Source of the DNA: Candidatus Zipacnadia bacterium
GTDB lineage: Bacteria > Armatimonadota > Zipacnadia > Zipacnadales > Zipacnadaceae
Direction: 5' to 3'
NCBI GenBank assembly: GCA_029821455.1
Contig: JALGTI010000007.1
Location: forward strand, 1-46,049
Length of the DNA: 46,049 nt
Positions 36,201-38,230 of the stretch are shown here, in pieces (the stretch's first letter is position 1; every line of letters starts with the position of its first letter). A program made the translations under genes and the position numbers. The notes beneath the pieces were generated by a model. It saw nothing but the letters and a program-made list of their open reading frames with translations. It did no database searches and had not been told where the DNA came from.

Positions 36201-37527
36201 TGCCGACCTGATGGAAACCGGCACGCTCAGGGCCCTGTACGACTTTGAAAACCGGGAGCGCGCCTTCCCTGACCTTGACGCACGAACGAAGTTCACACTC
36301 CTGTTTCTGGCTCACGGGGCACCAGTGACGGATTTTGCCTTTTTCTTGACACGTCGACAGGACCTCGGAGACGAAGCGAGGCATGTGGCCCTTAGCGATG
36401 AAGACATCGCTCTCCTCAACCCAAACACGCGAACCTGCCCGATCTTCCGCAGCAAACGCGACGCACAACTGACCAAGCGGATCTACCGCCGTCACCCCGT
36501 GCTCATCCGCGAAATCTACGACGACGATGGCAACAAGGTCGGCGAGGAGAACCCCTGGGGTATCACGTTCGCCACCATGTTCCACATGACCAACGATTCG
36601 GATCTCTTCCGCCCGCGCGAGGAGCTGGAGTCCGACGGCTTCACCCTCCGCCAACCCGGCAACCACTTCGTCAAAGGCGAGGACGTGTGGCTGCCCCTCT
36701 ATGAGGGACGAATGCTCTGGCTCTTCGATCACAGGTACGTCTCCATGCAGGTAGCGGACGGCAGGACCTACCGTACAGCCGATTCGGCCCCGACGCGCCA
36801 AGCAGAGCACTGTAGCTCCTGCCATTCAGCGCTTCCTCGGTACTGGGTAGCTGAGGCCGAGTATCGTGCCGCGTTGCCCAGTATCGACGTACGGCCGTGG
36901 CATTTTGCGTTCAGGGATGTCACGAACCCTGTTACGGAACGCACTGTAGTAGGTGCGGTTATCCCCGCGATGCCAGCAGGAAACAAAGCTCCCTTCATCC
37001 TCTTCGGCGTTCGTCCCAGAATCGCGACGCTCCTCGTGGCGAACATCCTTTCGTTTCCGTTCGACTACTGCGCACGGCAGAAGTTGAGCTACTTGGGCCT
37101 CAACTTCTTCATCATGAAGCAGTTACCCGTGCTGCGACCGGACGAGTATGACCATGACCACCTGGACCACATAGCCGACCGCGTCCTGGAACTCACCTAC
37201 ACCGCGTGGGACATCAAGGCCTTCGCGGGGGACCTGGGCTATGACGGGCCGCCGTTTGTCTGGGATGAGGAGCGCCGCGCCCAACTCCGTGCCCAGCTTG
37301 ACGCGCTCTATTTCCACCTGTATGGTATTGAAAGAGACGATGTGGACCACATCATGGAGACCTTCCCGATAGTCAAGCGCAAGGACATCGCGGCCCACGG
37401 CCATTACCACACCAAAGACCTGATCCTGAGCTACTACGACGACCAGGCCGCCGGCGACTTCACCACCTGGCACGGCCCGGAGGAACTCAAAGAGCCAATG
37501 ATTCACCCGGACGACAGCAGGCCATAA
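33199..37527 (+). CDS. drmMI: Very large (1442 aa) gamma-class N6-adenine DNA methyltransferase, Eco57I/PglX-like, DISARM DrmMI-like
   Basis: Motifs seen: GVYYTPKWI, motif I [10 protein letters not shown] (nt 34933 on), [22 protein letters not shown], and motif IV NPPW (35857-35868). There are long unassigned N- and C-terminal regions, and I saw no nuclease motif. Confidence 0.9.
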   Translation: [1442 protein letters not shown]

Positions 37528-37541
37528 GGGGGAAAGGGCAC

Positions 37542-38003
37542 ATGCAAATCGTCACGCTCGCATTGCCGATCTTAGTTGGTATTGTGGCGATAGTAGTTGG
37601 CATAATCAAGATTATCGAATTCTGCAGGGACCGAATCCGTATCAATGTCAGCGCCGAGTACATCTGTCTCGGTGAGCCTGCGCCTGCTGCCTCGAGACAG
37701 CTTGTAAGACTTACAGCGGTGAACCAAGGTAAACGGCCCGTTTCTTTGGACAGTGCCTATCTGATCTTCTCCGACGGCGGCAAGCTCTCGTATAAGAAAG
37801 AGCTCACTTATCATTCGAACGACGATCTGCCGTGCTTACTGCAAGACGGGGAGAGTTGTAGTGTCCACATTCCTGCCCAGCAACTCCGTGAGAAAGAGGC
37901 AGGCGGTAGTAAGGCCGTTGCCGTAGCTTTTCGAGACGCGTCCAATAGGGAATATCGGAGCAGTTTTCGGCCTGACGTCGCTTCCGAGAAGACCCAAAGA
38001 TGA
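37542..38003 (+). CDS. Hypothetical membrane-anchored protein (153 aa)
   Basis: ATG lies 14 nt after the methylase stop, behind aaggggga. It has an N-terminal TM helix (IVTLALPILVGIVAIVVGIIKII) and then a small soluble domain. It is visibly more A/T-rich than its neighbours: about 47 % G+C over the first 120 nt by hand count. Confidence 0.65.
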   Translation: MQIVTLALPILVGIVAIVVGIIKIIEFCRDRIRINVSAEYICLGEPAPAASRQLVRLTAVNQGKRPVSLDSAYLIFSDGGKLSYKKELTYHSNDDLPCLLQDGESCSVHIPAQQLREKEAGGSKAVAVAFRDASNREYRSSFRPDVASEKTQR

Positions 38004-38058
38004 TGAAGCCTGTCAGGGCACTGACCAGCTTTGCGGAGTAGCAAGCACCGCCAAGAAC

Positions 38059-38230
38059 ATGGCGCAACTGCGGCATGCACTCAAGATGTTGACGATCACC
38101 ATAACCGGAGACATGCTCGCCTGCTGCCGCGCCAAGAGCCTGATATTGAGATACTGCGACGGCCAGGCCGTCGGCAACTTCGACACCTGGCACGGCCCGG
38201 CGGACCTCAGAGAGCCCAGGATATACAAGC
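38059..38230 (+). pseudogene. Orphan duplicate of a DrmMI-type methyltransferase 3' end
   Basis: By hand alignment nt 38134-38216 match nt 37414-37496 at 68/83 positions. The translated remnant SLILRYCDGQAVGNFDTWHGPADLREP matches the methylase tail [27 protein letters not shown]. No upstream methylase body is present. Confidence 0.65.

Follow-up and report, generated by a model that had tools for sequence, protein, structure and literature searches.

A truncated methyltransferase gene end before an embedded DUF3644 gene: a probable scar of module joining in a DISARM-like defence operon

In a defence operon of Candidatus Zipacnadia bacterium, the end of an N6-adenine methyltransferase (methylase) gene occurs twice, once in the gene itself (copy 1) and once as a 5'-truncated stub (copy 2), which runs into the start of a gene of the DUF3644 family. 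The operon lies on contig JALGTI010000007.1 (assembly GCA_029821455.1), of which positions 1 to 46,049 of the forward strand were analysed; this whole stretch of 46,049 nucleotides (nt) is called the window. Three core genes, coding for an SNF2-family helicase, the methylase and a large helicase, follow each other on the same strand, and two further genes, one for a small protein of 153 amino acids (aa) and the DUF3644 gene, are embedded between the second and the third. Our reading, to which we assign a probability of about 0.62, is that copy 2 is a non-functional relic, or scar, of a methylase 3' end, left by the recombinational joining of two modules. The repeat is real, the stub is non-coding, and the layout recurs in independent contigs with varied cargo and varied truncation points; the recombination route and the order of events are what we infer from these observations. 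Loci from other contigs are designated below by L numbers.

The original prediction had reported that the 3' end of the methylase gene recurs 720 nt downstream with 68 of 83 positions identical. An exact match count gave the same figure for 37414-37496 against 38134-38216 (gapless, same strand, offset 720 nt), and the translations of both copies agreed with the peptides first proposed. A repeat finder extended the pair to 96 nt (37407-37502 against 38127-38222; 80% identity, no indels), and blastn between the two copies gave 83% identity over 89 nt (E=3e-21). At the protein level, the peptide of copy 2, KSLILRYCDGQAVGNFDTWHGPADLREPRIY, was 61% identical to that of the methylase (tblastn, E=5e-10). 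The similarity was far above what GC-rich 83-mers give by chance, the best 83-nt ungapped window reaching 69 identities as compared with a mean of 37.4 (standard deviation 1.5, maximum 44) in 200 shuffles.

We consider it highly improbable that the arrangement is an artefact, be it of chance similarity or of a chimeric assembly of metagenome reads in which a shared tail bridged two strains. The contigs compared here are indeed mostly from metagenomes, and the combination of 153-family gene, stub and DUF3644 gene was seen once. Yet chance is excluded by the shuffles and by blastn, and the tail/cargo/tail layout occurs in many independent assemblies, a recurrence that a chimera at the window's own junction, though conceivable, would not explain. 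Furthermore, the longest exact match between the two copies, the 17-nt run CACCTGGCACGGCCCGG (37464-37480 and 38184-38200), is short for an assembler jump.

Copy 1 is in frame within the last 40 codons of the 1442-aa methylase open reading frame (ORF). Its description as the true 3' end of the gene is right to that extent, though the repeat ends about 8 codons short of the stop codon at 37527 and does not reach the very gene end. In an alignment of the family, the repeat lies mostly in a lineage-specific C-terminal extension, past the family-wide conserved ...LILxxYD motif. The two copies must therefore derive from closely related methylases, as general conservation of the family would not give such a match. 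Upstream of copy 2 there is no methylase body, as had been stated: tblastn with the whole methylase did not find the rest of it between 37528 and 38300, and a profile of the C-terminal body matched only 36199-37176, that is, the gene itself. Copy 2 is contained in a 68-aa ORF that overlaps the DUF3644 start codon in another frame, again in agreement with the first description; the ATG at 38241 is also the one at which the DUF3644 homologues start.

The gene between the copies had been described as an A/T-richer gene for a membrane protein, which proved accurate. A helix is predicted at residues 2-29, and the GC content (followed by GC3, the value for third codon positions) was 0.519 (0.565), as compared with 0.613 (0.778) for the methylase gene, 0.575 (0.671) for the DUF3644 gene and 0.589 (0.688) for the downstream helicase gene.

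Both types of related locus that the original prediction had proposed to look for were found, one carrying the small gene (L165) and one with the methylase directly before DUF3644 (L002/L003). L165, a contig of 829 nt from an independent assembly, comprises a methylase tail (3-98), to which copy 1 is 88% identical at the nucleotide level, a 149-aa homologue of the 153-aa protein (113-562; 42% aa identity) and a second tail from about position 565. The second tail of L165 comes directly after the stop codon of the small gene, without a spacer, whereas 123 nt separate the two in the window, but the second tails of both loci begin within about 10 nt of the same tail point. No DUF3644 gene was present in the approximately 130 nt that remain of this contig. 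The scar, which is not an active element, is old, because L165 shares the layout, and the event need not have taken place in this genome. Over 84 aligned nt, three informative sites group the copies by position, none by locus, and two support the third arrangement. These site patterns, which gave no sign of gene conversion within a locus, weakly suggest a single duplication predating the split of the window and L165 lineages.

On the DUF3644 side, the closest relative (L001, 75% identical) is preceded by an unrelated 265-aa gene and then by a differently truncated stub, which begins about 40 nt later in the tail than the window stub and ends 2 nt before the DUF3644 ATG. The 3' part of copy 2 and the sequence that follows it align with this stub-DUF3644 junction. 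In L002/L003 (DUF3644 52% identical) and L172/L173 (56%), the methylase tail stands directly before DUF3644, in L002/L003 with no small gene in between, and in all four loci a second tail fragment starts 15-30 nt past the DUF3644 stop codon; that of L002 carries a frameshift. All the close DUF3644 relatives for which upstream sequence is available (L001, L002, L003, L172 and L173) thus have a tail or a stub directly upstream. A single-protein scan of reference genomes found no close DUF3644 relatives, and a profile scan of the same genomes recovered 80 loci at 38-48% identity, which had no detectable methylase relative adjoining DUF3644 and are uninformative for the junction. More generally, the distant DUF3644 relatives (38-50%; the 80 reference genomes, L004 and L174-L178) are not located beside such a methylase.

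The tail-to-153 junction is found in the window, L165 and L167, and the tail-to-DUF3644 junction in the window, L001, L002/L003 and L172/L173. Since each junction also occurs elsewhere, the window joins two existing units, "tail + 153-family gene" and "tail + DUF3644". The original prediction had spoken of parts of this system being swapped as cassettes; that parts are gained and rearranged is supported by the differences that L002/L003, L001 and L165 show after the methylase, as well as by truncated tails in 8 of 81 loci (see below).

We also considered the possibility that copy 2 is functional, as a small protein (the 68-aa ORF), as a leader peptide coupled to DUF3644, or as a regulatory DNA or RNA element. 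The persistence of stubs in the window, L165 and L001 would fit such a role. The differences between copy 2 and copy 1, however, fall 3, 7 and 3 times on codon positions 1, 2 and 3 and amount to 10 non-synonymous and 2 synonymous codon changes. The comparison with the second copy of L165 likewise gave 10 and 2. This proportion indicates that the window stub is without constraint at the protein level. The 68-aa ORF had no family match in Pfam, PADLOC or PHROGs, and its counterpart frame in L001 lacks a start codon and differs in its 5' limit; copy 2 is therefore not part of a conserved functional ORF, a point on which the first interpretation depended. In other loci, the stubs of L095 and L100 are internal fragments cut on both sides and that of L118 contains indels, which, together with the frameshift in L002, also speaks against a conserved product. 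Searches of 37300-38600 for promoters and terminators yielded single consensus matches, no more than in shuffles, and the only Rfam match in this region was far below threshold.

Two observations are more favourable to a function. The second copy of L165 differs from intact tails mostly at third positions (1/3/8) and its frame is open to the stop codon; this copy may have belonged to a functioning methylase until a more recent time. Furthermore, the ribosome-binding region of DUF3644, AAGGAGG in L001 and GCGAGG in the window, falls within the last 20-30 nt of the stub, and the presence of the DUF3644 start region in these bases may explain why this end piece is always kept. Taken together, copy 2 is probably not functional, its last bases aside, and a role as protein, leader or regulatory element is very unlikely.

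The frequency of such stubs was assessed in a census of 80 metagenome loci encoding relatives (40-51% aa identity) of the last 442 residues of the methylase, to which the window was added (81 loci in total). The last 240 nt of each methylase ORF were compared with everything downstream. In 8 of the 81 loci, a same-strand, 5'-truncated copy of the locus's own methylase end was found, the clearest copies being 83-94% identical at the nucleotide level. The copies within a locus are far more alike than the methylases of different loci, whose aa identity is only 40-51%. The window copy (83%) was joined by single copies in L093 (89%), L095 (92%), L100 (90%), L118 (89% over 185 nt, with indels) and L125 (94%). 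Two loci had two extra copies each, L090 (90% for the near and 71% for the distal one) and L123 (90% for the near one, the distal one being recognizable at the protein level only, with 42% aa identity); in both, the distal stub is the more diverged. A self-comparison of 963 kb added L138 and L144, and by a rough hand count repeats touching the last 330 nt of a methylase were about 23 times denser than repeats elsewhere. Stub lengths ranged from 30 to 235 nt, and the truncation points were scattered (profile positions of about 18, 31, 33, 37, 42, 45, 51, 55, about 80 and above 87).

The cargo beside or between the copies was varied and mostly defence-like. It included a HARE-HTH/AAA/PD-(D/E)XK protein in L095, a zinc-finger protein and a CHAT-TPR protein in L123, an HTH-M78 (IrrE-like) protein, proteins of no assigned family and a UvrD helicase in L090, an SMC/ABC-like ATPase in L100 and a 1515-aa repeat protein in L118. 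In L093, two toxin-antitoxin-like pairs, DUF2281+PemK (2320-2894) and DUF2442+DUF4160 (3228-3774), are bracketed by three copies of the extreme methylase end: the full one at about 1931-2202, one from "DVTY..." at 2913-3121, and one at about 4140-4280 that comprises the last 20 or so codons and the sequence after them. The layout is array-like, and no recombinase was seen in it. Shared ancestry of the cargo across loci was tried as an explanation and rejected, the 153-aa, 265-aa, 108-aa and L125 proteins having no mutual similarity.

Other duplications were observed around these genes. In L123, the methylase gene begins with a stretch of about 90 nt (7090-7174) of which same-strand copies (79-87% identity) are found upstream, at 142-226, 1494-1555 and 5191-5279. 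Two ORFs that are nested between the SNF2 and methylase genes come right after the last of these copies, all of which look like mirror-image 5' stubs. In L125, the repeat (4636-4715 and 5630-5709; 88% over 73 nt) spans the methylase stop codon and the first 7 or so codons of the next gene, so that the whole gene junction is duplicated and not the tail alone. As to the reach of the searches, viral contigs scanned for the conserved tail core gave no matches; a protein search of a plasmid collection returned 103 records with related methylases, in a mode that is blind to short stubs; and the downstream helicase was located in only 10 of the 80 methylase loci, the window helicase being too divergent as a query.

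Islands and prophages are known to insert at the 3' ends of genes and to bring a duplicated replacement end, as e14 or phage 21 do at icd and other elements at tRNA or transfer-messenger RNA genes. By analogy, a recombinase might target the methylase end and supply it with a new 3' end; like such islands, the cassette of the window is flanked by a complete 3' end on one side and by a displaced, partial copy on the other. Genes for a tyrosine integrase and a serine recombinase indeed lie 5-8 kb upstream, an integrase gene lies beside the system in L168, and L156 provides a classic case elsewhere, in that a class III aminotransferase-like gene has its 3' end duplicated there (125 nt, 94%; 2639-2763 and 7719-7842) around an insert of about 5 kb that contains the methylase. 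In addition, none of the five tail copies in the window, L165 and L001, the drifting stubs included, has a change in the first 15 nt of the exact 17-nt run CACCTGGCACGGCCCGG. This run, however, encodes T-W-H-G-P, and its survival is without significance when the choice of window is taken into account. Unlike an island, the 0.6-kb cassette has no recombinase and holds the 153-aa gene only, nor was a recombinase seen in the annotated cargo of the other stub-bearing loci. Tail sequences differ among loci, leaving no common core, and the truncation points vary widely, even between the window and L001. These scattered truncation points and the absence of a visible recombinase make a homology-based or illegitimate route likelier than a fixed site, and site-specific integration is accordingly an improbable explanation.

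A further possibility is that no DNA came in at all: the "tail + following gene" segment would have been duplicated in tandem, in place, by unequal sister-strand exchange, and later partly deleted. Tandem duplication does occur in such genes. The class 1 DISARM-like locus L166 contains a tandem duplication of 1.69 kb from the 3' half of its methylase gene (8944-10626 against 10626-12291, 82% identity), giving a 770-aa ORF in which a C-terminal fragment is fused to another C-terminal half. The much greater similarity of copies within a locus than of methylases between loci, and the excess of third-position differences expected of one constrained and one free copy, would also fit. On the other hand, two steps are required, with a deletion that removes the second copy of the gene yet spares its tail. 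Duplication in place leaves unexplained why different genes flank the stub, each of which is found elsewhere with its own tail leader, as well as the lower GC content of the small gene. None of the eight clearest pairs is near 100% identity, as would be expected of recent duplicates made in place; this is a weak point, as identical repeats may vanish fast. On balance, we regard this explanation as unlikely.

The joining of two modules accounts for these features in the following manner. In such tightly packed operons, the leader of a following gene would lie inside the last codons of the methylase gene. A unit "methylase tail + 153-aa gene", as in L165, would have been joined to a unit "methylase tail + DUF3644", as in L001, L002 and L172, by one crossover in homologous methylase sequence and another join at or inside a tail. 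The outcome would be that an intact methylase is kept, the small gene is added and a 5'-truncated tail is left before DUF3644. This truncated tail would then drift, with only its last bases, which contain the DUF3644 start region, likely still to matter, and the two tail copies would persist as short direct homology arms around the inserted gene. The second join may have been illegitimate, or it may have been homologous, from tail to tail, once a "tail / gene / tail" unit existed. Homology-facilitated illegitimate recombination, in which one homologous anchor is combined with one illegitimate join, has been described for natural transformation. It predicts the outcome seen in the window if the illegitimate join falls inside the recipient's methylase end: by analogy, the donor's complete end and the cargo would have entered, and the recipient's partial end would have stayed. 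The window stub resembles L165 on its 5' side and L001 on its 3' side, which is compatible with a hybrid, the stretch being very short.

Genes are thus gained and rearranged in these operons by recombination in or at the methylase end. The original prediction had proposed that an incoming methylase allele, with the small gene attached, replaced an older one and left the old tail behind. The recombinational gain of a module is retained from this proposal; the replacement of a whole allele, and the decision as to which copy is the older, are not. A better description is that each embedded gene carries the tail of its former upstream methylase as a 5' leader.

Several points weigh against the joining of modules. 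No near-identical pair of genomes with and without the cassette was found, so breakpoints and direction are what we infer rather than observe. The phylogenetic signal comes from five informative sites only, and the window junction inside copy 2 was seen only here. Most loci are metagenome contigs, in which a chimeric join of two strains at a shared tail would be indistinguishable from a true recombinant. The methylase and the tail-DUF3644 junction seem to have diverged together for a long time, which would imply rare, old events and not frequent cassette traffic. Finally, when the differences between intact tails and stubs are pooled, 35 of 73 fall on third codon positions, an enrichment with p=0.007. 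This excess does not separate an imported allele from duplication in place, because both predict a constrained intact copy.

A bolder version of the joining of modules, which we hold only tentatively, is that the tail copies act as portable homology arms and that "tail / gene / tail" units are inserted, swapped and deleted, at the end of any methylase gene of sufficient similarity, by homologous recombination, without an integrase. Were this so, it would account for arrays such as L093 and the window, it would give an explanation for the shuffling of accessory genes among related operons with the methylase intact, the intact methylase presumably being needed for self-protection, and it would provide a general route by which defence operons gather accessory genes.

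Partial copies of methylase genes are also known from invertible systems, in which they lie nearby in inverted orientation, carry the specificity region and work with a recombinase. The window differs from invertible DrmMI loci in that its copies are direct and comprise only the C-terminal tail, without a specificity region; a repeat search of 28000-46049 found no inverted methylase fragment. Silent cassettes for the switching of methylase specificity by gene conversion were rejected as an explanation, the stubs having no specificity region. Programmed inversions that alter DrmMI-like methylase genes have been described in class 1 DISARM-like loci, and some of the loci surveyed have helicase+DUF1998 in a single gene (Milman et al. 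2023, PMC9881135). The window operon matches the "DISARM-like" loci of that survey in gene family and kind of locus.

A closer parallel is offered by the orphan rhs-CT and cdiA-CT modules (Koskiniemi et al. 2014, PMC3967940), which are likewise 5'-truncated copies of a gene's 3' part, located downstream in the same orientation with homology kept, which look like pieces displaced from full-length genes, and which can recombine with the main gene. Arrays of several fragments, as reported for these modules, have counterparts in L090, L093 and L123. Unlike the orphans, the window stub (31 codons) has neither an alternative functional domain nor an immunity gene, its neighbours are unrelated to the methylase, and the variable cargo has its place between the copies rather than within them. 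The host gene is here a methylase, whose product was probably left unchanged by the event.

Genes nested inside Hma, BREX, DISARM and type I restriction-modification systems have been described, and the PDC (phage-defence-candidate) models of PADLOC were built from genes embedded in BREX, DISARM or type I restriction-modification systems (Payne et al. 2024, bioRxiv 10.1101/2024.01.29.577857). The same study treats DUF3644 as a HEPN domain and suggests a "genomic sink"; it does not address the route of embedding or report duplicated ends of the flanking core gene, and the words "remnant" and "recombination" are absent from its text. As in those systems, the extra genes of the window stand between core genes in the same orientation. 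The DUF3644 protein matches the PDC-S19 profile, which PADLOC lists as a candidate for defence by a single gene, and its gene lies between the methylase and helicase core genes on the same (+) strand. Stubs of the window type are possibly the footprint of this embedding process. Nesting inside defence operons is already used to find new defence systems, and truncated ends of upstream genes beside nested genes would be a physical trace of joining that can be searched for systematically and that marks the limits of modules. The stubs point to entry based on homology rather than on a recombinase. The scar alone is ordinary and of modest weight for the window; its recurrence beside embedded defence genes is a testable handle on how genes enter.

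The features of the operon and its surroundings are listed in Table 1. The operon has both the SNF2 helicase DrmD and the N6-adenine methyltransferase DrmMI of class 1 DISARM. Class 1 DISARM has separate DrmA and DrmB (DUF1998) genes, whereas the window has instead one fused gene, whose 1743-aa product resembles, in sequence, a DrmA-DrmB fusion (ArmC/DruE-like). No PLD domain (DrmC of class 1 DISARM) was detected by Pfam or PADLOC in the ORFs scanned (28534-45719; the window ends at 46049). The fused helicase-DUF1998 form has been described for ARMADA and Druantia (PMC13463889), and the order of genes matches ArmA-ArmB-ArmC of ARMADA II (SNF2 helicase, adenine methylase, YprA/DUF1998 helicase; PMC13463889). 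A UvrD-like ArmD was not seen within the window, the next ORF (45003-45719) having no Pfam match, and Pfam found none of the Vsr-type and EEP domains of ARMADA II ArmC in the 1743-aa protein. The integrase and the serine recombinase are encoded just upstream of the defence operon, on the opposite strand, and because they adjoin it the defence locus probably sits on an integrated island.

Table 1. Features of the defence operon and of the region upstream of it (window coordinates).
Feature	Coordinates	Strand	Evidence or remark
Large serine recombinase, 671 aa	25052-27067	-	Pfam Resolvase, Recombinase, Zn_ribbon_recom; extra C-terminal LuxR/sigma-70-type helix-turn-helix (HTH) domains
Tyrosine integrase, 347 aa	27478-28521	-	Phage_integrase E=1.4e-28
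SNF2-family helicase, DrmD/ArmA-like	30074..33202	+	First core gene; PADLOC DrmD PDLC02621 E=0, 1050.8 bits; Pfam SNF2-rel_dom, Helicase_C
N6-adenine methyltransferase, 1442 aa, DrmMI/ArmB-like, type IIG-like build	33199..37527	+	PADLOC DrmMI PDLC02643 E=1.2e-232; Pfam Eco57I, N6_Mtase, MmeI_Mtase, MmeI_N
Copy 1 of the repeat	37407..37502	+	In frame inside the methylase gene
Embedded 153-aa gene: predicted membrane helix and beta-sandwich	37542..38003	+	Homologue family; AlphaFold2; lower GC
Spacer of 123 nt between small gene and copy 2	38004..38126	.	No similarity to methylase
68-aa ORF containing copy 2	38059..38265	+	Judged not a gene
Copy 2, 5'-truncated methylase 3' end, then DUF3644 leader/ribosome-binding region	38127..38240	+	Recognizable at 38127-38222
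Embedded DUF3644/HEPN gene, 361 aa	38241..39326	+	Pfam DUF3644 E=1.5e-13; PADLOC PDC-S19 PDLC04951 E=3.8e-130
DEAD/DExH helicase, 1743 aa, with C-terminal MZB/DUF1998	39368..44599	+	Next core gene; Pfam DEAD, Helicase_C, MZB; PADLOC DruE 1e-113, weaker DrmA

The embedded 153-aa ORF is a real gene. Its product had no match in Pfam, PADLOC or PHROGs, and a word-index homologue search recovered only the protein itself. With an exhaustive HMMER search of a representative library, 67 proteins were recovered at E<=0.001, mostly with lengths of 136-199 aa. An AlphaFold2 model made with 30 family members as input (mean pLDDT, the predicted local distance difference test score, 90.9) predicts the N-terminal membrane helix, followed by a beta-sandwich domain. 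Comparison of the model with the PDB gave generic beta-sandwich matches only (template-modelling score 0.3-0.4), and an assignment of function from structure was dropped.

Members of this family were found in several settings. The one in L165 follows a related methylase tail, the one in L168 follows a different methylase of type IIG-like build, and the one in L169 has an ordinary chromosomal setting, beside a DUF433/DUF5615 pair. In L168 (1284-8453), a locus with a PLD-SNF2 helicase and a methylase beside an integrase, the family member starts 6 nt past the methylase gene. As this methylase is a different one, the small membrane protein is perhaps no random cargo but a partner that recurs with such methylases. 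In L167, a 161-aa member is preceded by a short tail remnant (...AAWHGPEEPREP...), with no methylase body in the 650 nt available upstream. At the DNA level, the small gene is a mosaic relative to L165:113-562, the first 90 nt or so being 82% identical and a stretch of about 50 nt near the 3' end 79%. The middle of the gene (37542-38003) has no detectable DNA similarity to L165, the proteins being 42% identical overall; fast evolution of the beta-sandwich or exchange of that part is possible.

Some further observations concern the rest of the window. The recombinase/integrase region (25052-28521) is a possible island boundary. A 1076-aa ORF on the minus strand (15383-18613) encodes a family 8 polysaccharide lyase of which the first 80 or so residues match the integrase core rve_3 (E=1e-23); either the listed GTG start reads through a remnant of an insertion sequence, or the lyase is preceded by a fused piece of a transposase. 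The window also contains dispersed short repeats that have no relation to the methylase ends. These are 4479-4619 and 4987-5127 (91% identity), 22176-22285 and 22563-22672 (83%), 4360-4413 and 18416-18469 (91%), and 21947-22019, which recurs inverted at 24644-24572 (93%), with 11879-11938 matching both of these last two. They may be elements of the repetitive extragenic palindrome (REP) or miniature inverted-repeat transposable element (MITE) type.

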